Below are positions 7,854 to 56,912 of a stretch of 64,000 nucleotides of DNA, one piece after another; positions within the stretch are counted from its first letter, which is position 1; the number at the start of each line of letters is the position of its first letter. The DNA lies in contig CAZLKB010000001.1 in the NCBI GenBank assembly GCA_964560005.1, positions 157,216 through 221,215 of the forward strand, in the 5' to 3' direction. Made by a program: the position numbers and the translations under genes. Below the pieces are notes generated by a model, which was given only the letters and a program-made list of their open reading frames with translations, searched no databases and was not told the origin of the DNA. The DNA comes from an uncultured Gammaproteobacteria bacterium (GTDB taxonomy: Bacteria > Patescibacteriota > Patescibacteriia > Patescibacteriales > GWC2-42-12).

Positions 7854-7932
7854 TGAGGCCAGAATTGGAATTGCCAGCCTGCCTGCCGGTAGGCAGGCCC
7901 AAGGCTGGTCCGCCTCTGGCGGAAACCCATGT
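7854..7932 (-). pseudogene. Duplicated tRNA-Cys 3' half (T-arm + acceptor) split in the T-loop by a 50-nt GC-rich insert
   Basis: On the minus strand: acatgggtt[50 nt]caattccaattctggcctca versus the tRNA acatgggttcaattcccatcctggcctca (27/29). The insert is tccgccagaggcgga + ccagccttgggcctgcctaccggcaggcaggctgg. Confidence 0.6.
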
Positions 7933-8012: not shown

Positions 8013-8233
8013 TAATTTAACCGATAAATTATTACAATCTTAATTCAATATACCAAAGATTAACGCTAATAACAAGCTTTATCCTGTCAAATCCGCCTGC
8101 CTACCAGCAGGCGGAAATTTGCACAGCAAATTTATTTGACGGGGTGAACCACGCCAACCCCCTTTTAACAGGGTAAATAAAACACCCATTACAGGTGTGT
8201 TGGTTCAACGCTCTATGATAATCAACCAAGGGT

Positions 8234-9737: not shown

Positions 9738-9754
9738 AGCCGTACTCAACTCAA

Positions 9755-9788
9755 AGGGAGCGACCTGATAGGCGCTCCCTCTTTTTTT
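9755..9788 (+). terminator. Rho-independent terminator
   Basis: agggagcg-acctgatagg-cgctccct followed by cttttttt. Confidence 0.75.
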
Positions 9789-9802
9789 AAATTAATTTTA
9801 TC

Positions 9803-10668: not shown

Positions 10669-10809
10669 TTGTCATTCCCGCCCGTCTCGCCGTAGCGTAG
10701 CCGAGGCGGACGCAGGCACCCTGTTTTCTTTTTCAGCACCGAGGAGCAATCCAGGAGGTGTAGCTTAAGACATGTTTCTAGATTCCGGCTCGGAGGCCGG
10801 AATGACAAG
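10669..10809. repeat. GC-rich palindromic element bounded by TTGTCATTCC ... GGAATGACAA
   Basis: The right module gattccggctcggaggccggaatgacaag (10781-10809) recurs at 53451-53480 and 56843-56902; the left end is ttgtcattcccgcccg. Confidence 0.7.
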
Positions 10810-11250
10810 ATAAGAAATTGTCCTGCCGGCGCTCGCCCCCTTTAAGGTTCCTTTCTCCAGCCTGGACATGACGAACATGCTGATGGCGTAAGCGGCAATA
10901 ATTATAATCGCGCCCATGATCGCCCGCCTAATCGTATCCTTAGCCTTGGTAACTTTATCTTCTTCGCCCTGGGCGGTCAGCCAGTTGTAGCCGGCGTACA
11001 AAATATAAACCAAGAGCAATACGCCGATAATGCTTAAAAATATATTGATAATGGTTTGGACTAAAATTAGAGCGCTATCGTCATTACCAAGATCATACCC
11101 GGCTCTCTCGCCCACAATCCCCACGTCCACGCCTATGCCGTCTTTTACATTATTTTTTATAAGACCGGCATTAGCCTGATCGATAAAAACAAATATGGTC
11201 AAGAAAAAAGCTACAGCTAAAATTCCTATTTTTAAAAATTTTTTACGCAT
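10765..11250 (-). CDS. VirB2/TrbC-like pilin paralogue 4, C-terminus encoded by the repeat element
   Basis: LYAGYNWLTAQGEEDKVTKAKDTIRRAIMG. It has an unusually long tail ...LVIPASEPESRNMS read from the GGATTCCGGCTCGGAGGCCGGAATGACAAG element. Confidence 0.55.
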   Translation of the reverse strand: MRKKFLKIGILAVAFFLTIFVFIDQANAGLIKNNVKDGIGVDVGIVGERAGYDLGNDDSALILVQTIINIFLSIIGVLLLVYILYAGYNWLTAQGEEDKVTKAKDTIRRAIMGAIIIIAAYAISMFVMSRLEKGTLKGASAGRTISYLVIPASEPESRNMS

Positions 11251-12964: not shown

Positions 12965-13211
12965 AAATTAAAATGAAAAATGCTAGCTCCGCTAGCACCC
13001 CGCAGATGCGGGGTCATTGCAGAGCAATGACAATGCAAAATTCAAAATTAATAAATGATTTTACATTTTGAATTGTCATTTTGATTTTTGCATTTTACAT
13101 TTTTAACTTTTATCGCTACTCTGCCCGCGAGCCCAGGCTCCCGTTCAGAGTAGCGGTCCCCAATAAATTGAGGACGCGCTTTTCTCAACACCATACCGGT
13201 ATTGAGAATGA

Positions 13212-20385: not shown

Positions 20386-20422
20386 ACAAAAAACCGCCCA
20401 ATCAATCTCGGCGGTTTTTTGT
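20386..20422. terminator. Bidirectional terminator between the convergent PBP1A and dnaN genes
   Basis: acaaaaaaccgcc-caatcaatctc-ggcggttttttgt. Confidence 0.75.
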
Positions 20423-20430
20423 TTATGAAC

Positions 20431-21633
20431 TTATTGCTTTATGGGCATTATAATATACAAATAGCTTTCGTCTTGTTCCGGCCGAATTAGGCAGGGAGTG
20501 TTGCCGTCTATTACTTCAATTTTAACCATCTCTTTTTCAATATTGCTTAATCCCTCAAGCAAGTAGCGATAATTAACCACCATGCTGTTTTCTTCGCCCG
20601 CCACCTTGGCCTGTAAATTAGTGATATTTTCTCCGGTTTGGCCGGAGACCGAGGATATTACCACCTGGTTTTTCCCGGCCGGAAAGTCCAGGTTTATATC
20701 ATTAATACCCGCTTTGGAAAACAAAGAAGCCATTTTTACCGCGCGAATCAATTCTTGGCGGTCAATTATAATTTTAGTCTTGCAATTAGTTGGAATAATT
20801 TGCTTATAATCCGGGTATTGGCCTTCAATCAGGCGAGAAACCAGCTCAACCGAGCCGTAAGTAAATAAAATCTGGTTGTCTGAAATATAAAATTTTATTT
20901 CCCGGCTGTTTTCCTCTACCTCGTCTTCCAGATTTATAGATAAAATTCTTAATAGCTCCTGCAGGGTTTTAGCCGGTACGATAATATTTTTTTCTTCTTG
21001 GCCGCCCGCCTGTGCCGGCGGGTTGGATTTATCCGGCGCTTTCTCTTGGGTGGCGCTGGATTTAATTTGGATTTTTTTCTCTGCCAAGCGATAACTGTCG
21101 GTGGCGGCCAGGGTTAAATAATCACCGGAAAACATAAATAAAACACCGGACAACTCCAGCCTGGTTTCGTTTAACGGAGCGGCAAAGATTACTTGGGAAA
21201 TCGCGTCTTTTAAGGCCGCGGCCTGGGCGCTGAAATAATTCTTCTTTTCCACTTCGGGAATTAAAGGAAAATCTTCAGCCGATTGCCCTTTAATTTTAGC
21301 TTGATAGTTTTCACAGTCAACCAAAATCTCGTTTTCTTTTTGGTTTAATCCTATTTTTTTATTCGGCAGCAAACTTATGCAATCTAAAATAATCTTTGAA
21401 TTAACCGTGAATACGCCCTCGGCCTCAATTTTCCCCCTAACCGCGCTGATTATGCCTATTTCTAAATTGGTCGCGGCTAGTTTTATTTTCCCCTCATCCA
21501 CTTTAATTAAGATATTGTTTAAAATCGGCAAGTTTACATTTTTTCCGGCTATATGGCTTACCAGCGCCAAGCCTTGTTTTAAATTTTCCTGCAAGCTGAA
21601 TATTTTAATTCCGTTAGATTTTTCGTTGTTCAT
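20431..21633 (-). CDS. dnaN: DNA polymerase III beta sliding clamp, with GC-rich in-frame insert
   Basis: 400 aa; LATNLEIGI, SGDYLTLAATDSYRLA, LIEGQYPDYKQIIP and C-terminal YLYIIMPI; extra segment SSATQEKAPDKSNPPAQAGGQEEK. Confidence 0.9.
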   Translation of the reverse strand: MNNEKSNGIKIFSLQENLKQGLALVSHIAGKNVNLPILNNILIKVDEGKIKLAATNLEIGIISAVRGKIEAEGVFTVNSKIILDCISLLPNKKIGLNQKENEILVDCENYQAKIKGQSAEDFPLIPEVEKKNYFSAQAAALKDAISQVIFAAPLNETRLELSGVLFMFSGDYLTLAATDSYRLAEKKIQIKSSATQEKAPDKSNPPAQAGGQEEKNIIVPAKTLQELLRILSINLEDEVEENSREIKFYISDNQILFTYGSVELVSRLIEGQYPDYKQIIPTNCKTKIIIDRQELIRAVKMASLFSKAGINDINLDFPAGKNQVVISSVSGQTGENITNLQAKVAGEENSMVVNYRYLLEGLSNIEKEMVKIEVIDGNTPCLIRPEQDESYLYIIMPIKQ

Positions 21634-21914
21634 ATTTTTTGCCCGCGTAGATTTAAAATCTTAATCTTACGGTTTTATTTTTATTAATTTAAATTAATAA
21701 TATAAATATAAATAAATGATAACAATAATATGCGGGTTGATGGGTTATTATTTAGATAAATTTTAGCTAAAATTATTATTAATTTTTATTTATTGGCTGT
21801 GTTTTGGTTGTTGAAAAGTAAATCAATTTAATGGGCAGAGGGTGTATAAAAACGTGGTTATAAAAATAAAAAATTAAACCTTCAACAACCTAACCACCGC
21901 CAATCACCAAATTA

Positions 21915-23273
21915 TTAACCGTTATAAATCAATTGTTTTATTGAATTGATGTTTTGCTTGGTGCGTTCATCTTCTTCGTATTCTTTAACGACTTTATTAT
22001 AGGCGTGCATGGCGGTAGTATGATCGCGGCCTCCGAGTTCCTGGCCGATTGAAGGATAAGACGAGTTTATTTCTTTTCTCATCAAAAACATGGCGATTTG
22101 CCTGGGGACCACCAATTCTTTTTTTCGGCTTTGCCCGACAATATCTTTTATATTAATATCAAAAAATTTGGAAACCGCTTCAATTATGGTTTTCGCTGTT
22201 GTAGATTTTGATTGAAAATTGGAAATAATGCCGGCCAAAACATTCTTGGTTGAGTCAATTGAAGGTAAAGAATTATTAAATTCATAATAGGCGATTAATC
22301 TATTAAGCGCCCCCTCAAGTTCGCGTATATTACTGGTAATATTATTAGCAATATAAGCCAAAATTTCTTTATCAAGCTTATAATTTTTTTCCTTGCACTT
22401 GGTTTCTAAAATTGCGATTCTGGTTTCAACATCCGGGGCGCCGATATCGGCGATCATGCCCCACTCAAAGCGCGAAAGCAGCCTTTTTTCCAGAGCCGGA
22501 ATAGCTTTGGGCGGGCGATCGGAAGAAATTACAATTTGACGGTTAGTTTGGTGCAGATCATTAAAAGTATGGAAAAATTCTTCTTGCGTGCCGTCTTTGC
22601 CGCCCATAAAATGGATATCGTCAATTAAAAGCAAATCAACATTGCGATAGCGGTCTTTAAAATCTTTGGCTTGGCCGTTTCTGACGGCTTGGATATAATC
22701 GTTGGTGAATTTTTCACAAGAAACATATAATATTTTTTCCGTTTTTTTGGACAATTCATGGCCGATCGCTTGGAGCAAGTGGGTCTTGCCCAAACCAACC
22801 CCGCCATAAATAAAAAGCGGGTTATAGGCGTGCCCGGGGTTGGCCGCCACCGCCTGGCTGGCCGCGTGAGCCAGCTCGTTATTTTTCCCCACGATAAAGC
22901 TGTCGAAAATATAGCGGTTATTTAAGCCAAAGCGGTTGATGGTTTTTGGCTTATTTTCAACGATATTTTCAGTTTTGGCATTTTTAATAAAACTACCGGG
23001 CAAGGCTTCTTTTCTAACCTCAACCTTGTATAAAATTTCTTTTACTTCCAGAGAACTAAGGTTCTTAAAGGCATTGGCAATTTCTTTGTGGTATTTTTTT
23101 TCTAGCCAGGCTTTAGTGAAAGTGTTGGGCACGCAAATAATTATTTGGCCGCCTTCATGGGAAGAGATAAAGGTGTTTTTAAACCAAGTGGTAAAATTAG
23201 CCTTAGATAAGGTTAGCTCGATTTCGCCTAAAACAGCTTGCCAAAGCTGTTCGTTGTTCATAATTTGGGGCAT
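21915..23273 (-). CDS. dnaA: Chromosomal replication initiator DnaA
   Basis: Walker A GGVGLGKTHL, LLIDDIHF, and C-terminal HTH region RDHTTAMHAYNKV. Confidence 0.95.
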   Translation of the reverse strand: MPQIMNNEQLWQAVLGEIELTLSKANFTTWFKNTFISSHEGGQIIICVPNTFTKAWLEKKYHKEIANAFKNLSSLEVKEILYKVEVRKEALPGSFIKNAKTENIVENKPKTINRFGLNNRYIFDSFIVGKNNELAHAASQAVAANPGHAYNPLFIYGGVGLGKTHLLQAIGHELSKKTEKILYVSCEKFTNDYIQAVRNGQAKDFKDRYRNVDLLLIDDIHFMGGKDGTQEEFFHTFNDLHQTNRQIVISSDRPPKAIPALEKRLLSRFEWGMIADIGAPDVETRIAILETKCKEKNYKLDKEILAYIANNITSNIRELEGALNRLIAYYEFNNSLPSIDSTKNVLAGIISNFQSKSTTAKTIIEAVSKFFDINIKDIVGQSRKKELVVPRQIAMFLMRKEINSSYPSIGQELGGRDHTTAMHAYNKVVKEYEEDERTKQNINSIKQLIYNG

Positions 23274-23289
23274 TATGATTGAATGTTAG

Positions 23290-23706
23290 CCAGCCTGGCT
23301 TTAAATATTTTTTCGGCAAAGGACATGTCTTGCCAAGTAAAAAATAAGAATATCGCCTGACTAGATCTATTTAAAAGTAACGAGAAAGCGTTTAATAATA
23401 TAATATTAAGATTTGGTTATTATAACAGTAATAAAAAAAATATCAAACAGTGGATAGTGTTTATAAGCTGTGAATAAATAGTGTAAAAAAACCAATAATA
23501 AATTAATCGGTTAAAAAAACCGGAGAATACTCCCCCGGTTTGACTTAAGGTGTTTTAAATGTTATGTTTTATTACAGAGATGAAAATTTATTATTTGCTT
23601 AAATTCAAATTCAGCATAGAAAAATAATAAATTAATTTCCTTCCGGCGATTAATATATTCCGCCGACTTTTTAGAGCGGATTTATTTAATAAGAACGAAC
23701 TTATCT
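23290..23706. other. Candidate oriC by position (dnaA | rpmH spacer); only degenerate DnaA boxes seen
   Basis: Divergent dnaA(-)/rpmH(+) junction; AT-rich; agtggatag (23449-23457) and tgtgaataa (23469-23477) each deviate from TGTGGATAA. The AT-rich dnaA-dnaN spacer 21634-21914 is an alternative. Confidence 0.3.
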
Positions 23707-23844
23707 ATGCCAAAAAGAACTTATCAGCCGAACAAAAAAAGAGCCAAAAGAAAACACGGCTTTAGAAGACGCATGCTCTCTAAAAACGGGCGGGCGGTTT
23801 TAAAAAGAAGAAAAGCGCGGGGCAGGAAGAGGCTGACTAAATAA
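23707..23844 (+). CDS. rpmH: 50S ribosomal protein L34 (not in the ORF track, 45 aa)
   Basis: Hand translation gives [45 protein letters not shown]; sits directly upstream of rnpA. Confidence 0.9.
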
Positions 23845-23845
23845 T

Positions 23846-24193
23846 ATGCTTGCCAAGCAATATCGTTTAAGTAAAGAAAAAGATTTTGAAAAAGTTTTTA
23901 AACGCGGCAGAGCTAATTATACCGGGCAGATAGGCGTAAAGACCATAGCCAACCAGTTTAGACATAATCGTTTTGGTATTATAGTAAGCGCTAAAGTCAG
24001 CAAAAAAGCAACGGAAAGGAACAGAATAAAACGGCGAATTAGGCAGGCGCTTAGGCAATTGGATAAAAAGTTAATCGGTGGTTATGACGTTGTAATTATA
24101 GCCTTGCCCGGCCTATTAAACTTGGATTATCAAGCCGTTAAAGGTGGGCTGGAAAGAGTTTTTATAAAATTAAAACTTTTTATTGATCGTTAA
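23846..24193 (+). CDS. rnpA: RNase P protein component
   Basis: [28 protein letters not shown] motif; rpmH-rnpA-yidD-yidC synteny. Confidence 0.9.
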
Positions 24194-24446
24194 GACCATG
24201 CTTAAATATTATCCCAGGTTTATCGCGGTAAAATTAATAAGGGTATATCAAAAAACGCTTTCCTTTGATCATGGCGTTTTTAAATTTTTTTACCCAAACG
24301 GTTTTTGCCGGTTTAATCCGACCTGCTCGGAGTACGCGATTCAGGCGTTAGAAAAGTACGGGTTTATAAGAGGGGGTTTTAAGGCGCTTTGGCGCGTCTT
24401 GCGCTGCAACCCGTTTAATCAAGGCGGTTTTGACCCATTAAAATAA
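24183..24446 (+). CDS. yidD: Membrane protein insertion efficiency factor YidD
   Basis: YQKTLS...[19 protein letters not shown]; the start may instead be the Met at 24198. Confidence 0.85.
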
Positions 24447-24464
24447 AGACAACTTATAATTATT

Positions 24465-24610
24465 GTTGGGCGGGAAGATTGGTTTTAAGAGCATGCAAAA
24501 TTGTAACTATTTTTCTCTCAAAATTACTCAATCCAAGTTTAATGGTTAATAATTTTGAGAGAAAAATACACAAATTTTGTCTAAACGAAAAACCAATCTT
24601 CCCGCCCAAC
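24465..24610. repeat. Foldback element family, copy A (inverted relative to B and C)
   Basis: Perfect 22-bp outer stem gttgggcgggaagattggtttt/aaaaccaatcttcccgcccaac; conserved core gcatgcaaaattgt (24491-24504) and caaattttgtctaaacgaa. Confidence 0.75.
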
Positions 24611-24631
24611 TACTTTTAATTAAGCTAATCT

Positions 24632-25348
24632 ATGTTCCAAATTTTCCATCTAGTTTTTTATCAGCCTATCTTAAATTTGCTGGTTTTTTTATATAACATT
24701 ATCCCCGGGCATGATATTGGCTTGGCTATTATCGCCATGACCGTAATTATCAAGTTGATTTTATTGCCCTTATCCAAACAATCCATCAAATCGCAAAAAT
24801 CCTTGCAGACTTTACAGCCTAAAATAGACGAGTTAAAGAAAAAATACGCCAACAATAAGGAAGAATTGGGCCGAGCCATGATGCAGCTGTATAAGCAGGA
24901 AAAAGTAAATCCATTTTCTTCCTGTCTGCCGCTCTTAATCCAACTTCCCTTTCTCTGGGCGGTATTCATAGTTTTTAGGGATGGATTAAACAACCAGGCG
25001 TTGTCCAATATCTATTCCTTTATCAGTAATCCCGGCGTGATTCACCCGATTTCTCTGGGTCTGGTTGATTTGTCAAAGCCCAATATTGTTTTAGCGGTTT
25101 TAGCCGGAGCCGCTCAATTTTGGCAAGCCAAAATGATGGTAACTAAGCGTCCGGAGGTTAAGAGCGCTGGCGCCAAGGACGAAAATATGATGGCCATGAT
25201 GAATAAGCAGATGCTTTATATGATGCCGATTTTAACCGTGGTTATTGGTATGACTTTCCCCGGCGGCCTGGCTCTCTATTGGTTGGTAACTACGGTTTTA
25301 ACCGCCTTGCAGCAGTTGTATTTATTTAAGCAGAAAGATAAAGTATAA
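24632..25348 (+). CDS. yidC: Membrane protein insertase YidC (short form)
   Basis: KLILLPLSKQSIKS, MQLYKQEKVNPFSSCLPLLIQLP, GLALYW. Confidence 0.9.
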   Translation: MFQIFHLVFYQPILNLLVFLYNIIPGHDIGLAIIAMTVIIKLILLPLSKQSIKSQKSLQTLQPKIDELKKKYANNKEELGRAMMQLYKQEKVNPFSSCLPLLIQLPFLWAVFIVFRDGLNNQALSNIYSFISNPGVIHPISLGLVDLSKPNIVLAVLAGAAQFWQAKMMVTKRPEVKSAGAKDENMMAMMNKQMLYMMPILTVVIGMTFPGGLALYWLVTTVLTALQQLYLFKQKDKV

Positions 25349-30117: not shown

Positions 30118-30275
30118 TGAGGCAAAGATATTAGTTTATCCACCCGCTTTCGCGAGTGCTAAAGGCCGGCAAAATTTGTGTATTTTTTCTTAAAATTATA
30201 TTATATTGGGTCTGGATAATTTTAAGAAAAAATAATACAATTTTGCATGCGCTCTAAACTAATATCTTTGCCTCA
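30118..30275. repeat. Foldback element family, copy B
   Basis: Perfect 21-bp outer stem tgaggcaaagatattagttta/taaactaatatctttgcctca; apical attgggtctggataatttta (30205-30224); acaattttgcatgc (30237-30250). Confidence 0.75.
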
Positions 30276-34646: not shown

Positions 34647-34687
34647 AGTTTGTAAAGTTTAATTATTTTGATAACTTTGAAAATGAA

Positions 34688-34831
34688 GCAGTCTGACAGG
34701 AGAATTAATTTTTCGCTTAGACAAAATTTGGGTGTTTTTTATTAAAATTAAAATAAATTGGGTCTGGATAATTTTAATAAAAAACACTACAATTTTGCAT
34801 GCGCAAAAAATTAATTCTCCTGTCAGACTGC
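34688..34831. repeat. Foldback element family, copy C
   Basis: Perfect 26-bp outer stem gcagtctgacaggagaattaattttt/aaaaattaattctcctgtcagactgc; apical attgggtctggataatttta (34757-34776); acaattttgcatgc (34789-34802). Confidence 0.75.
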
Positions 34832-34851
34832 TCGAGTTTATATAAAAAAAT

Positions 34852-35759: not shown

Positions 35760-35833
35760 GGGGTGGTAGCTCAATTGGTTAGAGCGCTGCCCTGTCACGG
35801 CAGAGGTCGCGGGTTCGAGTCCCGTCCATCCCG
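35760..35833 (+). tRNA. tRNA-Asp (anticodon GTC)
   Basis: ggggtggtagctcaattggttagagcgctgccctGTCacggcagaggtcgcgggttcgagtcccgtccatcccg. Confidence 0.85.
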
Positions 35834-35836
35834 CAA

Positions 35837-35872
35837 AAAAGATAAAGCCCCCTTCGGGGCTTTATCTTTTTT
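35837..35872. terminator. Terminator hairpin after tRNA-Asp
   Basis: aaaagataaagcccc-ttcg-ggggctttatctttttt. Confidence 0.75.
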
Positions 35873-35883
35873 ATGAGATAGAA

Positions 35884-35986
35884 GACGGGACGAGAACGCC
35901 GGACCCCGCATTTGCGGGGGAGGCGGTGGCTAGGCCGAGGAGGCGGCAGCCGACGAGAGCCGAAGCCGAGTCCCGTCCATCCCGCA
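35884..35986 (+). pseudogene. Duplicated tRNA-Asp 3' end with ~70-nt GC-rich insert (att-like)
   Basis: cgagtcccgtccatcccgca at 35967-35986 is a 20/20 direct repeat of 35816-35835; preceded by gacgggacgaga and GC-rich hairpins (ccccgcatttgcgggg). Confidence 0.6.
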
Positions 35987-36131
35987 TTTTTTGGAAAACA
36001 GAGCTAGAGCTCTGTTTTTTTGATAGTTAATTGAAAAGGGCAGGAACGCTTTACAGATATTACTTAATATGATATTGTTTCAAGACGGTAAATATGTAAC
36101 ACTATACTTCAATACACCGCCCCATTAATTT

Positions 36132-36402: not shown

Positions 36403-36444
36403 ATTCCCTGAAAAAGGTTATAATCTGGTCCACTTGCTCCCGCA
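36403..36444 (+). repeat. Degenerate tRNA-Asp 3'-end-like direct repeat, copy 2
   Basis: tccctgaaaaaggttataatctggtccacttgctcccgca; compare the tRNA ggttcgagtcccgtccatcccgca. Confidence 0.55.
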
Positions 36445-36570
36445 AACGGAACGAGGTCATAAAACGGCTTCGTTTTTATTTTAGGTTAGGCAATTAATTT
36501 GGTTGTAGTGGTTGTGGTTTGGGCGTGGAAGTGGTAAAATAGAGGCATAATTTTTAAGTAATAAAAATAT

Positions 36571-37380
36571 ATGCATAAGAGAAAATATTTGATAATTTTA
36601 GTTGTTATTTTTTTCATAATTATTGGAAGTTATATTTGTGTCCAATATATTTTAAATAGTATACCGCGAAACGACAGTCAAGCACCGAGAACATTCGCCT
36701 GGTTTTATAAAAATTCTGATGTTATTAGCTATGTGGAGATATTAGCAGTAGATGTAAATGTTGTTCCGTCTGACAAATTGGCTCCTCCTGGCAGCTGGGT
36801 TCTTCACCCCAAACAAGCCGTCAAAGTAAAATTGCTAAAAGTTTTAAAAGGGTCAAAACAAAACGGAGAGACATTAGAAGTCTTGAAACCAAGTTCATAT
36901 TTTTATTTTACGCCAGGACAAAAACTGGTAGTTTATCTGAAGAGACACGGAAAGAGTTATCAAGCCTTAGTTGATAGTGGCGAATGGAGGTTGGCATTTG
37001 TTATGGCAGAACTTAATATCTTAAAAGGAAAAGCTAATGGAGGAATTGTAGCGTCAGCCATTGAAGATGGGAGCGATGTTCCTCGGACTATCTATGTTCT
37101 AAGTGGCAGACAAAAAGCCCCGATGATTTTTAATAGCCAACAATGGAATGATGCTTTTATAACCCAAGGTCAAATCGACCAAAGTAATGTGGCAGAGATT
37201 CCTCTTGACCCGGGTTCTTATACAATTTTATTAGGTAAAACGGTAGAAATCCCTCTCGACTCCGATTTACTCGGGCAAGCTGTTGCCCTATATCCGTTTA
37301 ACAGGCTTGTTGATGAATATTATCCTTATATCACTTTAGATAAATATCGTCCGTGGCGACCGATTGTCTTCAGCCAATAA
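36571..37380 (+). CDS. Hypothetical N-terminally membrane-anchored protein (cassette between direct repeats)
   Basis: 269 aa; TM LIILVVIFFIIIGSYICV; no recognisable motif. Confidence 0.45.
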   Translation: MHKRKYLIILVVIFFIIIGSYICVQYILNSIPRNDSQAPRTFAWFYKNSDVISYVEILAVDVNVVPSDKLAPPGSWVLHPKQAVKVKLLKVLKGSKQNGETLEVLKPSSYFYFTPGQKLVVYLKRHGKSYQALVDSGEWRLAFVMAELNILKGKANGGIVASAIEDGSDVPRTIYVLSGRQKAPMIFNSQQWNDAFITQGQIDQSNVAEIPLDPGSYTILLGKTVEIPLDSDLLGQAVALYPFNRLVDEYYPYITLDKYRPWRPIVFSQ

Positions 37381-37445
37381 TTTATTAGATATTAACATTT
37401 AAATTTTAGACTTAAATAAGATTTTAGGAATATAATAATCAGTAT

Positions 37446-37487
37446 TTTCCTTAAAAAAGGTGATAATCCCGTCCACTTGCTCCCGCA
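37446..37487 (+). repeat. Degenerate tRNA-Asp 3'-end-like direct repeat, copy 3
   Basis: ttccttaaaaaaggtgataatcccgtccacttgctcccgca; 1043 nt downstream of copy 2. Confidence 0.55.
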
Positions 37488-37504: not shown

Positions 37505-37544
37505 AAAACAAAACACCTCGCCGGATGGCGAGGTGTTTTGTTTT
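37505..37544. terminator. Bidirectional terminator (18-bp stem)
   Basis: aaaacaaaacacctcgcc-ggat-ggcgaggtgttttgtttt between convergent genes. Confidence 0.8.
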
Positions 37545-37570
37545 TGCTTTTTCTCTGATTCCTTTGCCTT

Positions 37571-44232: not shown

Positions 44233-45363
44233 ATGTCTTTATCCATCGGCATTGTGGGTTTGCCTAATGTGGGCAAATCAACTCTATTTAACGCTTTAAC
44301 CAAGAAAAATGTGGAAGCGTCCAATTATCCTTTTTGCACCATTGATCCGAATGTGGGCGTGGTTAAAGTACCCGACGAGAGACTGGAGAAGCTGGCGGCA
44401 ATATCCAAGCCTAAAAAGATAATTCCGACCTATATTGAATTCGTGGATATCGCCGGCTTGGTTAAGGGCGCGTCGGAAGGCGAAGGCCTGGGCAACAAAT
44501 TTTTATCCCATATCCGGGAATGCGACGCCATCTTAGAAGTAGTTCGGGAATTTAAAGATGACAATATTATTCATGTTAACGGAAAAATTGACCCGGACTC
44601 TGACAGAGAAACGATTAATCTGGAATTGATTTTGGCCGATCTGGCCACGGTGGAAAAAAGATTGGAGAAAGTAATAAAGGAGGCTAAGAGCGGCAATAAA
44701 GAAATGATCGTTTTAAAAAATTTGCTGGAGAAAATAAAAATACAACTGGAAGCCGGCAAGGCGGTGCGCGAGATGAGTTTAACTGAAGATGAAACTAGAG
44801 AAGTTAAAATTTTAGGATTATTGACGGTAAAACCGATTATTTATGTGCTGAATACTAAGGGAGAAAACCCCCTTTCCGCCGAAGGCGGATCCGCCCCTGT
44901 GGGAAGCCCCCCTCCGCCAGAGGCGGACAAATTTATCAAGGGGGCTGAAAATACTCGGAATGGAAAAGTTATAAAGATTGACGCCAAGATTGAAGCGGAA
45001 ATCGCCGGTTTGCCCGAAGCCGAACAGGCGGAATATATTAAAGAATTAGGTTTAAACCAAAGCGGTTTGGATAAATTAATAAAAGCGTCTTATGAAATTT
45101 TGGGCTTGATAACTTTTTTAACCACCGGAGCGGACGAAACCCGCGCCTGGACGATAAAACGCGGGACTAAGGCACCCGAAGCCGCCGGCGTGATTCACAC
45201 GGACTTCGCTAAAGGCTTTATCCGCGCCGAAGTGATAGATTGGCGGAAGTTTATTGAAGCCGGAAGCGAGGCTAAAGCGCGCGAGCTAGGGTGGATGAGA
45301 ACCGAAGGCAAGAATTACATCATGCAGGATGGGGATGTATGTAATTTTTTGATTAATAGCTAA
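44233..45363 (+). CDS. ychF: Ribosome-binding ATPase YchF, with in-frame GC-rich palindromic insert
   Basis: [44 protein letters not shown]-terminal TGS region; extra [18 protein letters not shown]. Confidence 0.9.
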
Positions 45364-48313: not shown

Positions 48314-48322
48314 ATGTATTTA

Positions 48323-48456
48323 CCCACAAATCTACAAATTAGCTACAAATATTACGAATAAGTATAATGCGAATACTGCAAATTATCTGCCGGCTAGTTG
48401 GGCGAATGCCGCAAATAGTATTTGTAGTATTTGTAGCTAATTTGTAGATTTGTGGG
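48323..48456. repeat. 134-nt AT-rich word palindrome (CTACAAAT words) immediately upstream of the 47000-48313 start
   Basis: cccacaaatctacaaattagctacaaatattacgaata ... tatttgtagtatttgtagctaatttgtagatttgtggg. Confidence 0.7.
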
Positions 48457-48801
48457 AATGTTTTCAATTAAACCTTAGCATAAGAACACGGCTCTTGCAA
48501 TTTTATAGCCGGCATGTTAAAGTTAAAACACAATTTAATCTTTAACCTTTTCCAGGCCCTTTGTCAAAGAGGGGTGGCTCCGATGTAATGTTGGGGCTAA
48601 AGGTATTCTCAATCCCGATACTATCCCGAATTTTTCGGGAATCAGAGAATATCCGGGATTTTTTTAACCCTTTGAAAACTTTTTCAAAAAAAGTTTTCAA
48701 TACTTTCCCCCTCCGGGGATAAACAAAAATTATAATGTATTAAATAAAATTTTATAGCGGGCAAAGCCCTACGGCCATAAAATTTTATTTAATTATAAAC
48801 T

Positions 48802-49407: not shown

Positions 49408-49866
49408 ATGAATTTAAACAAAGCCATGATCATTGGCAATTTGACCAGAGATCCGGAAATTAGAACTACGCCGACTGGCAAGACGGTAGCTTCTTTTTCC
49501 GTGGCTACCAATTTCGTTTGGACGGATCAATCGGGCCAAAAGCGGGAAAAAGCCGAATTTCATAATATTGTTGCCTGGGCGAGGTTGGCGGAAATTTGCG
49601 GCCAGTATTTAAAAAAGGGAGCTAAAATTTACCTGGAAGGCAGACTGCAGACCCGTGACTGGGTCGGCCAGGATAATGTTAAGCGCTACCGCACGGAGAT
49701 TATCGCCGAGAATATGATTATGCTTGATCGCGCCGGCAGTTCGGCCAGCCGCAATGAACAGCCGCCTATGCCAAGCGAGCCGGTAATAAATGTTGAAGAG
49801 GCTGCCAGCGCGCCGGAAGAGGGCGCCAGCGAAGAAGAAATCAGAGTAGAAAATATACCGTTTTAA
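49408..49866 (+). CDS. ssb: Single-stranded DNA-binding protein
   Basis: MNLNKAMIIGNLTRDPEIRTTPTGKTVASFSVATN...FHNIVAWARLAE; acidic tail EEEIRVENIPF; start moved from 49387. Confidence 0.9.
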   Translation: MNLNKAMIIGNLTRDPEIRTTPTGKTVASFSVATNFVWTDQSGQKREKAEFHNIVAWARLAEICGQYLKKGAKIYLEGRLQTRDWVGQDNVKRYRTEIIAENMIMLDRAGSSASRNEQPPMPSEPVINVEEAASAPEEGASEEEIRVENIPF

Positions 49867-49875
49867 TAATTATAA

Positions 49876-49950
49876 TTCAAATACTACAAAAAATAATGCC
49901 AATACTACAAATATTCGTAGTATTCGTGTGCCATTTGTAGAATTCGTATT
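49876..49950. repeat. TACTACAAA-word palindrome inside the rpsF-ssb-rpsR cluster
   Basis: caaatactacaaaaaataatgccaatactacaaatattcgtagtattcgtgtgccatttgtagaattcgtatt; same word family as 504-598. Confidence 0.65.
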
Positions 49951-50928: not shown

Positions 50929-51960
50929 CTATTCCTCCACTTCTTTAGCTTTAGCTTCGCTTAAAATGCGTTTTCTCAATTCTTTCATTAATTTTTTATC
51001 GGCGCGCAAGAATCGCTTGGCGTTTTCCCGGCCAACCCCCAGCTTAATCTCGCCGTAACTGTATGAGTTGCCGGATTTGTTTATAACATTCATGCTGGCG
51101 CCCAGATCCAAGAGGTCGCCGGAGATGGAAATGCCTTCATTATACATAATATCAAATTCGCAGGAGCGGAAAGGCGCGGCTACTTTATTTTTTACTATTT
51201 TGCATTTTACCCGATTGCCGATTATTTTATCGCCTTGTTTTATTTGCGCCGCCCGCCTAACTTCAATTCTAACCGAAGAATAAAATTTTAAAGCCGTGCC
51301 GCCGGTGGTGGTTTCCGGATTGCCGAAAAAGACGCCGATTTTCATCCTGATTTGGTTTATGAAAATAACCACAGTCTTGGTTTTTGAAATTATGCCGGTT
51401 AATTTGCGCAAAGCCTGGCTCATCAGGCGCGCCTGCAGCCCCATATGCGAATCGCCCATATCGCCTTCAATTTCTTTTTGCGGTACCAGCGCCGCCACGG
51501 AATCAACCACTACTACATCAACCGCGTTGGAGCGAACCAAGGTTTCCAGAATTTCCAAGGCCTGTTCTCCCGTGTCCGGCTGGCTGATCAAGAGTTCTTT
51601 AATATTTATGCCTATTCTGGAAGCGTATTCAGGATCAAGCGCGTGCTCGGCGTCAATAAACGCCGCGATGCCGCCCATTTTTTGCACCTCGGCTATAATA
51701 TGCTGGGCCAGAGTGGTCTTGCCCGATGCTTCGGGGCCGAAAATTTCTATAATCCTGCCTCGCGGTACGCCGTTTATTCCCAGGGCGATATCAACCGATA
51801 GGCAGCCGGTCGGTACGGCGTCAACATCGGACTTTACGGCATCGCCGAATTTCATTATCGCGCCATCGCCGAATTTAGTCTTGATTTGTTCCACGGCGGA
51901 CATGGCAGCCTGCATTTTTTCTTCGGATTCGTTTTTATCTTGGTCGGTTTTATTGTCCAT
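50929..51960 (-). CDS. recA: Recombinase RecA
   Basis: [14 protein letters not shown] Walker [32 protein letters not shown]. Confidence 0.95.
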
Positions 51961-52072
51961 AAAAAATAAATTAAAAAAGGTTATAATTAACCTCCTGATT
52001 ATTTATATCATAGACTATTATTTTCCACCTGGCAAGCCTGCCTGCCCGCAGGCAAGAGGGGCAAAATCTTCA

Positions 52073-52744
52073 TTATTTTACCAAAATTTGCCTTAAAACA
52101 GTATTACTGCGGCCGTATTTTCTGCTGGCGGTTATGGTAATAAGATTAAGGCCGTTTTTTAAGTTAACCAGTTTTGAAAAATTTCCGTTTTTATCGCTTA
52201 AAACGCTTTCTTGGTTGATTAATAAGTTAGCTTCGGCTTCGGTTTTTCCCGAAACTAACAGAGAAGTTTGGCTAGTAATTAAATCTACGCCCGGGTTGTT
52301 CACCAGTAAAATCGGCGGCGAGATTATTTTATTTATACGGAAGCCTAAATAAACAAAGCAGACGGAAATCACCAAAAAAATTAAAACATTTCTAAGGATT
52401 TTTGGCACCGCCCAGAGGTAGCGGCTTCTTATCACTTGCTTGGAAAAGATTTCTTTTTGCCTCTTGGGCTCTAAAATAGTTATTTCGGCTTCGTAGTCTT
52501 TGACCAGCTGTTTGTAGTCCAAACCTAAAAAAAGCGCGTATTCGCGCAAAAAGTTCTTTCCGTAGACGCCGTGGGGCAGTTGGTTATATTCGCCTTTTTC
52601 CAGCAAAGCCAGATATTTTTCGTTGATATTAAGTTTTTTAGCAACCTCTTTCAGTTTAAGATTTTTGCTCTGGCGGCTGGAGCGAAGTTGTTCGGCCACG
52701 GTTTTTGAGTCCAGATAAATTTTATTGGATTTAAAAAGATTCAT
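52073..52744 (-). CDS. RodZ-like HTH (XRE-type) membrane protein
   Basis: LRSSRQSKNLKLKEVAKKLNINEKYLALLEKGEYNQLP..VYGKNFLREYALFLGLD followed by a TM segment. Confidence 0.7.
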   Translation of the reverse strand: MNLFKSNKIYLDSKTVAEQLRSSRQSKNLKLKEVAKKLNINEKYLALLEKGEYNQLPHGVYGKNFLREYALFLGLDYKQLVKDYEAEITILEPKRQKEIFSKQVIRSRYLWAVPKILRNVLIFLVISVCFVYLGFRINKIISPPILLVNNPGVDLITSQTSLLVSGKTEAEANLLINQESVLSDKNGNFSKLVNLKNGLNLITITASRKYGRSNTVLRQILVK

Positions 52745-52793
52745 GGTTGGCTGGTGATTTGAGTTTTAGAACATTTTTGAGTTAGATGGATGA

Positions 52794-53312
52794 TTAATTA
52801 GGTCCTTCCCACCCCTGCGGAAATGATGAGTTGTTTGACGATGATGAGCCATTATCTTTAAACCAATTAATTGTTGCCCATTTTCCCGCTTGTCCCGCGT
52901 CAATGCCCAATACCGTGAAAACCAGTTGAATAATCATATAACTGGTGAAAACTATGACCAGGCCAACGACTGCTCCGGTAATCGCTTTTTTACCTATGTC
53001 TACACGCTCGGCGCTGCCGGCTGAAATCAGCCACATAACACCTCCATAAATAAAAGCCAATAAAGCCAACGAGCCGACTATGCCTAGAATAAAGTTAGAT
53101 GCGACTATTGCCACGCCGACTATTTCATTCAAGGTATAATTTCCGCAATTGCTGCTAGTACAGCCTTCGGGCGGAGGAGTACTTGGATTTTGTAATATTG
53201 GTACGCCCGGTTGAGTGGATGCTGGATCCGCCGCATATACGGTAAATACAGAAATAGAAAAGACGATAAATAAAAGTAAGGTTATAATTGATAATTTTAT
53301 TAATTTTGGCAT
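52794..53312 (-). CDS. VirB2/TrbC-like pilin paralogue 11 (isolated copy, long Ser/Asn tail)
   Basis: IYGGVMWLISAGSAERVDIGKKAITGAVVGL between two TM helices; tail ...KDNGSSSSNNSSFPQGWEGPN. Confidence 0.55.
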   Translation of the reverse strand: MPKLIKLSIITLLLFIVFSISVFTVYAADPASTQPGVPILQNPSTPPPEGCTSSNCGNYTLNEIVGVAIVASNFILGIVGSLALLAFIYGGVMWLISAGSAERVDIGKKAITGAVVGLVIVFTSYMIIQLVFTVLGIDAGQAGKWATINWFKDNGSSSSNNSSFPQGWEGPN

Positions 53313-53321
53313 ATTGTGTTA

Positions 53322-53480
53322 TTGTCATTGCGGGCTTGACCCGCAATCTAGGTGTAAGAAGTAAATAATTAAAAAATATAATAAAAAAATTAGCAAGTGA
53401 AATAGTTTAAAGCGTTTTTCGATAATTTATAATTTGTACTGTTTGCTCCTGGATTCCGGCTCGGTGGCCGGAATGACAAA
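53322..53480. repeat. GC-rich-ended palindromic element filling the whole spacer (TTGTCATT...AATGACAA)
   Basis: Left end ttgtcattgcgggcttgacccgcaat (53322-53347); right end ggattccggctcggtggccggaatgacaaa (53451-53480). Confidence 0.7.
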
Positions 53481-53489
53481 TAAGGCTCT

Positions 53490-54896
53490 TTATTGATTCA
53501 CCGTCTGCTGGACTTTGCTGGCGGCCAGATTAATCAGGTTTTGGGTTTTATCCTGGCTTAGGACCGCGGCATCAATCATTTCAGCGAAGAATTTTTCCGC
53601 AGCCGCCGAATCAAAACCTTCGTACCAGCTCTTAGCGGTTAGCACTTGCTCGGCGAAAACACCGATTTCGGGATCGCTGATTTGCTCATTGACCAGGGCG
53701 CGCAAAGCCGTGGGTTTTTTAGCTTTAGCCAGATAAGTTTTTGCCTGCTCGGCTTTTGTCATAAATTGGACAAAATCCCAAGCTTCATCGGCGTATTTGC
53801 TCTTGCTGGACACGGTTTCCACCCAGTAGTTGGCGAAATTAACCGGCGTATTGCCTTCAATTTGCGGCAGTTTGACAATGCTAAAATTTAATTTAGGCGC
53901 TTGCGCCATGATAGTGGGCAGATGATAAGAGTAGCCCAGCATAATCGCCAGCTTGCCTTGAATGAATAGGGTTAAAGAATTTTCCAGATCGCTGTTCCAC
54001 GAATATACTTCTTTAGACGGATTGGCGAAATCGCTGTAAAAATGAAGCGCTTCCAGCCCGGGATTGTATTTTTGATCTTTGAAGATTGATGGAATTTGGT
54101 TAAACATAACATTATTTCCGTCCATCATTATGGCCCCGTTCTGCATCATTAGAATTGATAAAATATCGCTGTAACGGTCAATATTTTTTGAACCGCCCAA
54201 GGCTATGCCGGATTGAATGATTTCTCCTTGGCTGTTCTGCTTGGTGGTTTTTTTTACGTCCTGCAGCATCTCGCTGTTCCAATAAACCGGAGGCTGAACT
54301 ATGCTGGCGTTATTGAATAAATCCTTATTATAGTACATTGCCAGAGTGTCCACGAATAAAGGCAGGCCGTAGACTTTTTCTTCGTTTTTTTTGGTTTTTT
54401 CGTCATATTTCAAGTCAACAACATCTTTATAAACTATGTCGACAAAATTATTTTTTACATCTTTTAAACTAATGCTCGAGGTGGTTCTTAACTCCGGTAT
54501 GACTTCTTTTTTAAGCGAGCCGCGGACAATCGGGTAAGCCATAGTGATGGTCGGCGGCATAGGGGTAATTTTATTTTTATATTTTTTTATCCAGGTATTA
54601 TGGATGGAAAAAATATCCGGCGCGCGGTCTTCGGCCAGAGCGTTTAAAAGTTCGCTTTCATACTCTTCATAGCGGAGTTTACGGTAGTTTATTGTGATAA
54701 AGGGGTGGAGGCTTTTGTAGGCGGCAAAAATTTCGTCAAAAGTATCCGAACCGTCCCAAACTCGCCAATAATTCAAGGTTATGGGCTTCATGGCTTCTTG
54801 AGTTTTTGTATCCACTAATTTACAGCCAAAGCCGGAGGTGAAGAGAAAGGCGAATATTAGTGATAAAATTATGACTTTGCTTTTTATGTTATCCAT
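53490..54896 (-). CDS. ABC transporter extracellular solute-binding protein (family 1, sugar-type)
   Basis: 468 aa; lipobox-like LFTSGFGC; typical SBP_bac_1 layout; no permease or ATPase gene adjacent. Confidence 0.7.
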   Translation of the reverse strand: MDNIKSKVIILSLIFAFLFTSGFGCKLVDTKTQEAMKPITLNYWRVWDGSDTFDEIFAAYKSLHPFITINYRKLRYEEYESELLNALAEDRAPDIFSIHNTWIKKYKNKITPMPPTITMAYPIVRGSLKKEVIPELRTTSSISLKDVKNNFVDIVYKDVVDLKYDEKTKKNEEKVYGLPLFVDTLAMYYNKDLFNNASIVQPPVYWNSEMLQDVKKTTKQNSQGEIIQSGIALGGSKNIDRYSDILSILMMQNGAIMMDGNNVMFNQIPSIFKDQKYNPGLEALHFYSDFANPSKEVYSWNSDLENSLTLFIQGKLAIMLGYSYHLPTIMAQAPKLNFSIVKLPQIEGNTPVNFANYWVETVSSKSKYADEAWDFVQFMTKAEQAKTYLAKAKKPTALRALVNEQISDPEIGVFAEQVLTAKSWYEGFDSAAAEKFFAEMIDAAVLSQDKTQNLINLAASKVQQTVNQ

Positions 54897-54909
54897 AAAT
54901 TTTTTGTCA

Positions 54910-55007
54910 AAAGTTCAAAATGTAAAAATCAAAATGTAAAATGACAATGTAAAATTAAAAATTATTAATTTGACATTTTTAACTGTCATTTTTAACTTTG
55001 AACTTTA
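54910..55007. repeat. AT-rich word palindrome (AAAATGTAAAAT / TGACA words)
   Basis: aaagttcaaaatgtaaaaatcaaaatgtaaaatgacaatgtaaaatt ... aatttgacatttttaactgtcatttttaactttgaacttt; related words occur at 13025-13100. Confidence 0.6.
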
Positions 55008-55079
55008 AATTTTAAATTAAATTAAGTTGAAGATAATAATATTATAACACAAATCACATTATAAAAGAAATGTCTATTA

Positions 55080-56597: not shown

Positions 56598-56632
56598 AGA
56601 ATAAAAATTTTCAAATTCTAATGACTAATTTT

Positions 56633-56662
56633 TCCGCCAGAGGCGGATCCGCCCTTGGCGGA
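56633..56662. repeat. Tandem GC hairpin modules TCCGCCAGAGGCGGA + TCCGCCCTTGGCGGA
   Basis: The first 15-mer is identical to 44913-44927 (inside ychF) and is the reverse complement of 7909-7923. Confidence 0.75.
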
Positions 56663-56842
56663 CAAACAATTTTCAATGATTAAATTTTTCAATTTTTAAT
56701 AAGTTAATTACTTGAACGCCAACCATTCTAGTTAATTTCATTATAACACAAAATAAAAAACCGCCTAAGGCGGTCGGCTATGGTTCAATGGCTTAAATGG
56801 CGACTGCTTGCCTGAAAACTTAAGTGGGAATGGAAAATAAAT

Positions 56843-56902
56843 GGATTCCGGCTCGCCTCCCGCCCGAGGCGGGCAGGTCGGCTTTAAGGCCGGAACGACA
56901 AA
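56843..56902. repeat. GGATTCCGGCTCG...GGCCGGAACGACAAA element with a nested GC insert, just 3' of smc
   Basis: ggattccggctcg[cctcccgcccgaggcgggcagg]tcggctttaaggccggaacgacaaa. Confidence 0.65.
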
Positions 56903-56912
56903 TTGGGGATGG

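Follow-up and report, generated by a model that had tools for sequence, protein, structure and literature searches.

A candidate Ssn-type hairpin repeat of the NTS/SRM class in intergenic spacers of a Patescibacteria genome

Introduction

What is the short GC-rich palindrome that lies at the stop codons of three genes in a Patescibacteria genome, and does it belong to the RNA or to the DNA? The question arises in a 64-kb window (the whole stretch analyzed here; contig CAZLKB010000001.1 of assembly GCA_964560005.1, positions 157,216 to 221,215), for which an original prediction, made from the letters alone, had described a repeated module that forms a hairpin, supplies the end of one pilin gene and bounds spacers of 140-160 bp. 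A possible model for such a module is the Neisseria Transformation Sequence (NTS), CGTCATTCCCGCGMAVGCGGGAATCYRG, an oriented hairpin that includes the older dRS3 repeat (PMC11893778). Chenal et al. (Nat Commun 2025) described SsnA as a 94-aa single-domain GIY-YIG nuclease specific for single-stranded DNA (ssDNA), which binds the NTS solely in its ssDNA form and cuts a few nucleotides 5' of its head (PMC11893778). The enzyme does not bind RNA and accepts neither RNA nor double-stranded DNA as substrate; the GTC preceding the palindrome weighs most in cleavage, and the C right after it in binding (PMC11893778). Ssn-related motifs (SRMs) flank 71% of ssn homologues across phyla, a layout that the authors liken to an insertion sequence (IS), and the word Patescibacteria is absent from the main text of that report (PMC11893778). 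Such hairpins are bound as ssDNA by small single-domain GIY-YIG Ssn nucleases in Neisseria and Wolbachia. The analyses described below indicate that the module is probably an oriented hairpin repeat of this NTS/SRM class, that is, a DNA-level element of the Ssn type and not an RNA element. Loci from other genomes or metagenome contigs are given L-numbers and pilin orthologue proteins P-numbers.

Results

Copies and fold of the module in the window

The three predicted copies of the module are present, two of them one base away from where they had been placed: AGATTCCGGCTCGGAGGCCGGAATGACAA at 10780-10808 and GGATTCCGGCTCGGTGGCCGGAATGACAA at 53451-53479 of the plus strand, and a third at 56843-56902 that contains GGAACGACAA and a GC-rich insert (Table 1). 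On the strand of the neighboring genes, which is the minus strand for all three (pilin, solute-binding protein and smc), they read TTGTCATTCCGGCC-loop-GGCCGGAATC(Y)AG, with a stem, ATTCCGGC/GCCGGAAT, of 8 bp and not 7 bp as first described. The claims that the copies lie at or over stop codons and that no U-tract follows the stems both held: copy 1 overlaps its coding sequence (CDS), copies 2 and 3 begin just after theirs, and none of the copies is followed by a T-run when read along the genes. The inverted left ends proposed for two of the spacers also exist. One is a complete hairpin with a different stem (copy 4), with its head 9 nt upstream of the ATG that starts the following T4SS_pilin gene (52794-53312) and with a loop, GGGCTTGACCC, that recurs in the Parcubacteria locus L125; the other, at 10669, has kept its head while its 3' half has decayed, and together with copy 1 it encloses a 140-bp spacer, heads outward. 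Folded with DNA parameters, the hairpins of the window reached -8.0 to -16.9 kcal/mol. With RNA parameters the 53322-53351 hairpin gave z = -5.2, and in a 148-nt fold of the copy 1 spacer both ends paired together (z = -3.15).

A pattern made of the outer positions, GTC[AG]TT[CG]C..G[CG]AATC[CT][AG][GT], matched the four copies and nothing else in the window, against a mean of 0.013 and a maximum of 1 match in 300 dinucleotide shuffles, and the 29-mer module was not matched in any of 100 shuffles of the window. Two further hairpins with GTCATT/AATGAC flanks, pointed out in the original prediction, are weaker candidates: the one at 13016-13035 is a perfect palindrome that lacks the 3' C on both strands and is possibly a collapsed doublet, and site 44088 offers the GTCATTCC head only.

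The loop of copy 3 holds a second GC-rich hairpin, CCTGCCCGCCTCGGGCGGGAGG, and hairpins nested in the loop of another were likewise seen in L212, L103 and L058. The nested insert is similar to two further families of GC-rich hairpins in the window (7871-7925, 8090-8116, 44873-44904, 52025-52060 and 56631-56662), one a tandem TCCGCC-N4-GGCGGA and the other of the CCTGCCTGCC…GGCAGGCAGG type; the latter type was also observed within the loop of a GTCATTG-type hairpin in locus L005.

Match to the NTS and related motifs

All outer positions of the NTS are retained in the window. The head is TTGTCATT in copies 1, 2 and 4 and TTGTCGTT in copy 3, and the foot, a 3' C followed by Y-R-G, reads AATC-TAG in copies 1 and 4 and AATC-CAG in copy 2, with copy 3 (AATC-CAT) off at the last base. 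Between them stands a GC-rich palindrome, with 8-bp stems, that folds as ssDNA. The copies thus share with the NTS, dRS3 and SRMs the GTCATTCC head, the foot GGAATC plus Y-R-G and a palindrome of similar size, and they resemble them in having a defined orientation, in being mostly intergenic and clustered around genes, and in adjoining, at other loci, small GIY-YIG genes. They differ in the inner stem, CCGGCC/GGCCGG (or GCGGG/CCCGC) with a 5-6-nt loop as opposed to CCCGCG-MAV-GCGGG, so that they miss the NTS consensus, and in their host, which belongs to the Patescibacteria (Parcubacteria/Falkowbacteria-like).

The hairpin in other genomes and beside Ssn-type genes

A scan of one genome per species with GGATTCCGGC-N(3-33)-GCCGGAAYGACAA returned at least 120 loci, distributed over Gamma-, Beta-, Alpha- and Deltaproteobacteria, Bacteroidota, Ignavibacteria, Chloroflexi, Nitrospirota, Gemmatimonadota, Omnitrophota and Fibrobacter and, among the Patescibacteria, over Wolfe-, Davies- and Doudnabacteria, Parcubacteria and Saccharibacteria. 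One assembly each of Fibrobacter, Daviesbacteria and Parcubacteria contained the 29-mer of copy 1 without a mismatch. Metagenomes contained the exact 26-mer with its 6-nt loop on at least 120 contigs, and the genome and metagenome scans together place 26-29-mers of the module on at least 240 contigs from many phyla.

At six of these loci the hairpin directly adjoins an Ssn-type GIY-YIG gene (PF01541), in its exact 26-mer form in L219, L162, L177 and L212 and in a GAAA-loop form in L043 and L056. This adjacency was seen in contigs of other organisms and not in the source genome. Two hairpins with outward-pointing heads enclose the gene in L043 and L056, and in both L219 and L162 the ATG of the gene follows 8 nt after the end of the hairpin. 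The L219 hairpin is identical to window positions 10808-10775 at 34 of 34 bases, and residues Y8, Y19 and E66 of its neighboring protein have the spacing of Y6, Y17 and E64 of the Neisseria meningitidis (Nm) enzyme, the catalytic residues mutated in PMC11893778. The proteins share the pattern …VYILAS.RNGTLYIGVTS.L..R..EHK…GFT..Y…LV…REKQLK.W.R.WK..LIE..NP.W.DL; NCBIfam held no specific name or model for them. We considered whether the spacer could be a deletion derivative of such a cassette and, lacking evidence, rejected it: beyond the hairpin and TCTAGAAA there is no homology to the cassettes.

A second small GIY-YIG subfamily (…YVYV…FYIGQT…REKQLKS…) was encountered in L124 (6850-7280) and L185 (about 950-1315), in both directly after a tRNA gene and, in L124, followed by a second, interrupted copy of the 3' half of the tRNA. 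Standing next to tRNA genes and lacking flanking hairpins, these genes were not counted as Ssn; they probably represent a different kind of GIY-YIG element.

Hairpins usually occur in heads-outward pairs

To place the window copies in a wider context, 526 perfect-stem hairpins were collected from 1.6 Mb of fetched loci, and neighbors within 400 nt were taken as pairs. Heads-outward pairs (GTCAT…ATC followed by GAT…ATGAC) numbered 135 with a median gap of 27 nt, and the other three orientations 22, 16 and 14 with median gaps of 48, 96 and 93 nt. The repeated unit is an oriented hairpin of about 30 nt, GTCAT-stem-loop-stem-ATC, that typically occurs in a heads-outward inverted pair. Both window spacers have this arrangement, with longer gaps. 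On a crude map of open reading frames (ORFs), 77% of the 526 hairpins were intergenic and 2% overlapped the 3' end of an ORF. Within 60 nt after a stop codon, 81 hairpins were in sense and 19 in antisense orientation, a bias that arises from the heads-outward geometry of the doublets.

In Deltaproteobacteria/Desulfobacterales the doublet lies inside an element of about 130 nt with outer inverted repeats, TGAT..TCGTAAAAAGTC and GACTTTTTACGA..TCAA (L007, L018, L019, L036, L044, L048, L063, L064, L066, L077, L085, L103 and L117). It is kept across many genomes, with two copies in chromosome CP070694, and is a composite family around the doublet that resembles miniature inverted-repeat transposable elements (MITEs).

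Filled and empty sites in relatives

Relatives keep the gene order smc-comM-SBP-pilin-HTH-recA (SBP, solute-binding protein; HTH, helix-turn-helix), their SBP being 71-79% identical to that of the window, and this allowed the spacers to be compared junction by junction. The window has 177 nt with a heads-outward doublet between SBP and pilin and 315 nt with copy 3 between smc and comM. Both junctions are empty in L247, at 8 and 17 nt. L248 and L249 have 104 nt with unrelated hairpins between SBP and pilin and 20 nt between smc and comM. L250 and L251 carry a heads-outward doublet with GTCATTGCGAG…GCAATC stems between SBP and pilin, its right-hand head standing, like that of the window, 8-9 nt ahead of the pilin ATG; the smc-comM spacer measures 6 nt in L250 and is not on the contig in L251. 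The elements therefore appear to be additions to junctions that are otherwise compact. Only the heads align among the three SBP-pilin doublets (window, L250 and L251); the doublet persists at this junction with its stems exchanged.

The 20-nt smc-comM spacer of the GWC2_42_12-like L248 and L249 (5343-5364), otherwise empty, holds TTTGTCATT, the head of the element, at the place that copy 3 occupies in the window. This may be due to chance (roughly 4e-4 by our own estimate from approximate base frequencies), a footprint or a preferred target.

A copy within the end of a pilin gene

Copy 1 is read through by T4SS_pilin paralogue 4, whose last 13 residues, VIPASEPESRNMS, and stop codon (together 10765-10806) come from the hairpin and its 3' flank. 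The predicted translation of the element, ...LVIPASEPESRNMS*, was correct. Of the tail that had been described as lacking from the other paralogues, most (..EKGTLKGASAGRTIS) is native to the orthogroup, and the last 13 residues alone derive from the element: in an alignment with 17 orthologues, ..SRLEKGTLKGASAGRTI was part of the orthogroup sequence and was followed by a short variable tail in each species. P0003 (locus L003, 68% identical) stays collinear across a decayed copy, TTGTTATTCCGGCCTCTGCTTCGGAATTTAG, and its stop codon has the same position (..VIPASASEFRDIF*). The case set to refute the prediction, orthologues with the tail and no repeat, was not what P0003 showed: it has the homologous tail along with the decayed copy. 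In P0007 (L004) the stop lies inside a variant with a CCCGC stem (..TVIPA*), and P0002 (L005), the closest at 74% identity, has its own tail, with a GCGAG-stem doublet starting 40 nt after its stop. Given the homologous tail and decayed copy of P0003, the insertion into the gene end appears to be old and tolerated. The added residues show no sign of function, and the consequence for the pilin is probably minor.

Rickettsia palindromic elements (RPEs), of 100-150 bp, are inserted in frame within gene interiors. The pilin case is like them in that a palindromic repeat inside a coding gene is translated and tolerated; it differs in that a 30-nt hairpin replaces just the last few codons and provides the stop, and such overlap with the 3' end of an ORF concerns the small minority of hairpins in the census noted above.

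Table 1 Positions of the module copies, related palindromes and overlapping or adjacent genes in the window.
Feature	Position	Strand	Sequence and remarks
Copy 1, SRM/NTS-like hairpin	10778..10808	-	TTGTCATTCCGGCCTCCGAGCCGGAATCTAG; inside 3' end of pilin CDS
Copy 2, SRM/NTS-like hairpin	53449..53479	-	TTGTCATTCCGGCCACCGAGCCGGAATCCAG; 10 nt past SBP gene stop
Copy 3, SRM/NTS-like hairpin	56841..56902	-	TTGTCGTTCCGGCC...GAGCCGGAATCCAT; 10-11 nt past smc stop
Copy 4, SRM/NTS-like hairpin, different stem	53322..53351	+	TTGTCATTGCGGGCTTGACCCGCAATCTAG; complete; forms an inverted pair with copy 2
Decayed inverted partner of copy 1	10669..10720	+	Head TTGTCATTCCCGCC, then GC-rich nested or long loop
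Atypical related palindrome	13016..13035	.	Perfect, GTCATTGC-AGA-GCAATGAC; no 3' C on either strand
T4SS_pilin (PF18895) paralogue 4	10765-11250	-	Overlaps copy 1
Solute-binding protein (SBP, PF01547)	53490-54896	-	Copy 2 starts 10 nt after stop
smc (PF02463)	56913-59567	-	Copy 3 starts 10-11 nt after stop

Other features of the window

The hairpins bracket a conserved block of DNA-transaction genes at 50929-59567, comprising smc, comM (Mg-chelatase-like, 55080-56597), SBP, pilin and a 343-aa ORF (50929-51960) that was not scanned and sits where the relatives L247-L251 have recA (343-346 aa). Set beside the published role of NTS and SsnA in transformation, the bracketing is suggestive, and maybe a coincidence. 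The strain is also contained in the sequence runs SRR12133403 and SRR12133404, from a groundwater enrichment or community. The window also contains the chromosomal replication origin region at 20431-24632, with dnaN (20431-21633, minus), dnaA (21915-23273, minus), rnpA (23846-24193, plus) and yidC (24632-25348, plus), AT-rich spacers at 21634-21914 and 23274-23845 and a cumulative GC skew minimum at 20-24 kb; the strand of the four copies relative to this origin showed no consistent bias.

A second copy of a tRNA 3' end, GAGTCCCGTCCATCCCGCA (35815-35833), follows about 135 nt downstream of the first, past a GC-rich insert (region 35760-35990), and a fragment similar to a tRNA 3' end, CCCGTCCACTTGCTCCCGCA, is found on both sides of the ORF at 36571-37380 (about 36430 and 37473; region 36430-37487). 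These repeats look like remnants of integration at tRNA genes. Three intergenic regions to the right of the origin (24465-24610, 30170-30263 and 34680-34839) hold long AT-rich inverted repeats with arms of up to 71 nt and 85% complementarity, which share AAAATTTG(T/G)GT…TTTTGCATGCGC. Short AT-rich repeats of the type TACTACAAAT / TAGTATTCG, arrayed as imperfect palindromes in promoter-side spacers at 500-600, 48320-48460 and 49864-49950, may be operator sites for one regulator.

Discussion

We consider it likely that the module is an Ssn-type hairpin repeat of the NTS/SRM class. Like the NTS and SRMs, it has a GC-rich palindrome between a GTCAT head on the 5' side and an ATC(YRG) foot, both conserved. 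In Neisseria and Wolbachia the Ssn enzyme cuts a few nucleotides 5' of the head, and its gene, typically flanked by the hairpins, forms an IS-like cassette with them. The copies would have entered the spacers as insertions, singly or as doublets, and would since have been inherited, decayed or turned over. Should the genome encode an Ssn, the enzyme would recognize the hairpins in single-stranded DNA, as formed in replication, DNA uptake or conjugative transfer, and this recognition would affect ssDNA recombination around them and not transcription. Copy 1 would have landed in the variable last codons of the pilin gene, swapping in 13 residues and a new stop as a tolerated by-product, not as a designed function.

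Several observations weigh against this interpretation. The published SRM string, HGTCWYN(0-2)YYVSBRHN(0-5)WNVSBRGN(0-2)RNCYNB, has no match in the window; our implementation of it recognized the NTS and the GAAA-loop variant. The mismatch is caused by the 6-nt loop and the altered inner stem, and as all 13 six-nt-loop variants from loci of other genomes also fail, the failure is confined to loop and inner-stem positions; a stem-loop variant of this kind would thus have escaped the published census. The Nm SsnA was inactive on an altered palindrome even when structure was kept (PMC11893778), and a cognate enzyme with matching specificity would therefore be required. No ssn gene or remnant was detected in the 64-kb window by motif regular expression, phmmer with three probes, a hidden Markov model (HMM) built from the neighboring genes or tblastn, and the same window holds only four clear copies. 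With a pilin HMM as marker of the candidate phyla radiation (CPR), none of the Ssn-bearing contigs was tied to the Patescibacteria, and a profile search for Ssn homologues returned more than 8000 near-identical environmental matches with no taxonomic signal. The placement of the neighboring GIY-YIG genes in cd10448, made from architecture and residue spacing and not from a CDD assignment, is likewise to be read as putative. Finally, the conserved location of the hairpins, 8-13 nt ahead of start codons and about 10 nt past stops, could also reflect a role at the RNA level.

Such a role, as a terminator without U-tract, a stabilizer of 3' ends against exonucleases or a stem-loop in a 5' untranslated region, seems unlikely to us, while keeping some weight because of that regular spacing. 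Repetitive extragenic palindromes (REPs) of E. coli can act at the RNA level. All three CCGGC copies are sense-oriented and begin 0-11 nt past a stop codon, the 9-13-nt spacing of the inverted partners to the next start recurs in L250 and L251 despite different stems, and the stems are predicted to be stable with RNA parameters. The preponderance of sense hairpins just after stops elsewhere (81 of 100) would also fit, but follows equally from the heads-outward doublets. The terminator-like reading found no support: the copies lack a T-run and a terminator scan does not call their sites, whereas canonical hairpin plus T-run terminators occur in the window at 9754-9790, 12977-13001, 20395-20425, 35845-35875 and 37512-37545. 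Rfam yielded tRNAs only, with no match at the module. The conserved parts, moreover, are the unpaired oriented flanks (GTC and C-YRG), which an RNA stem would not need; identical 26-34-mers are spread across phyla and stand beside ssn genes; and L247 manages with spacers of 8 and 17 nt at the equivalent junctions.

Mobile elements of known kinds explain part of the pattern. In the classical MITE reading, each 140-160-bp spacer would be a non-autonomous transposon with terminal inverted repeats, mobilized by some transposase, DDE or other. Both spacers are indeed bounded by inverted ends that face outward (TTGTCATT[CG]C ... G[CG]AATGACAA), the sites that are filled in the window stand empty in L247, and the deltaproteobacterial doublet lies within its larger element with outer inverted repeats in many genomes. 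Against it, the interiors of the two window units, compared by reading the sequences, are unrelated and share nothing detectable with the Ssn cassettes or with the orthologous spacers of L250 and L251, no target-site duplication is visible or definable at the flanks, copy 3 stands alone, what is conserved is the individual oriented hairpin, and a scan of 35 window proteins found no transposase; we regard a classical MITE as quite improbable. Of the MITE/REP-like units originally proposed, the REP-like character and the inverted copies bounding the spacers thus remain. The likeness to REPs and their doublets (REPINs) served by a REP-associated tyrosine transposase (RAYT), an IS200/IS605-like Y1 transposase, extends to E. 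coli and Pseudomonas systems with an oriented extragenic short palindrome, a conserved unpaired head, inverted doublets as the usual form and an associated nuclease or transposase, encoded by a single gene that its own repeats flank. REPs have a GTAG head. Here the head is GTCAT, the genes beside identical hairpins encode GIY-YIG enzymes and not HUH-Y1 transposases, and Pfam scans of window proteins gave no Y1 transposase, so that service by a RAYT is scarcely credible. SRMs, in addition, are not known to be mobile.

Two other candidates were set aside. An integron attC site, with R''/R' core sites RYYYAAC ... GTTRRRY on the two sides of an imperfect palindrome, was rejected because the GTTRRRY core is absent and the ends are TTGTCAT / ATGACAA or AATCYAG. 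Chance palindromes were rejected as well. Neisseria intergenic mosaic elements (NIMEs) are intergenic blocks of 50-150 bp in which RS units are bounded by inverted dRS3. The window spacers resemble them as mosaic or nested intergenic blocks bounded by inverted hairpins and differ in that their interiors are not repeated.

As an Ssn-type repeat, the module would extend the hairpin and nuclease system described in 2025 to the Patescibacteria and add a stem-loop variant that the SRM string misses. The strong preference for heads-outward pairs, the filled and empty orthologous sites and the turnover of stems at a conserved position bear on the question of SRM mobility, and in gene calls repeats of this sort give rise to C-terminal extensions (VIPASEPESRNMS-type peptides), whether spurious or real. 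We also entertain, as a doubtful but possible extension, that the heads-outward SRM doublet and not the single hairpin is what propagates, as a REPIN-like non-autonomous derivative of the hairpin-ssn-hairpin cassette, with Ssn mobilizing the DNA. If this were true, Ssn would be a GIY-YIG enzyme that mobilizes DNA across phyla, the Patescibacteria with their reduced genomes among them. Doublets of the present lineage would then be intergenic modules that became fixed and bracket the promoter region between genes, and this would explain why the SBP-pilin doublet, despite the exchange of its stems, persists in three diverged genomes.

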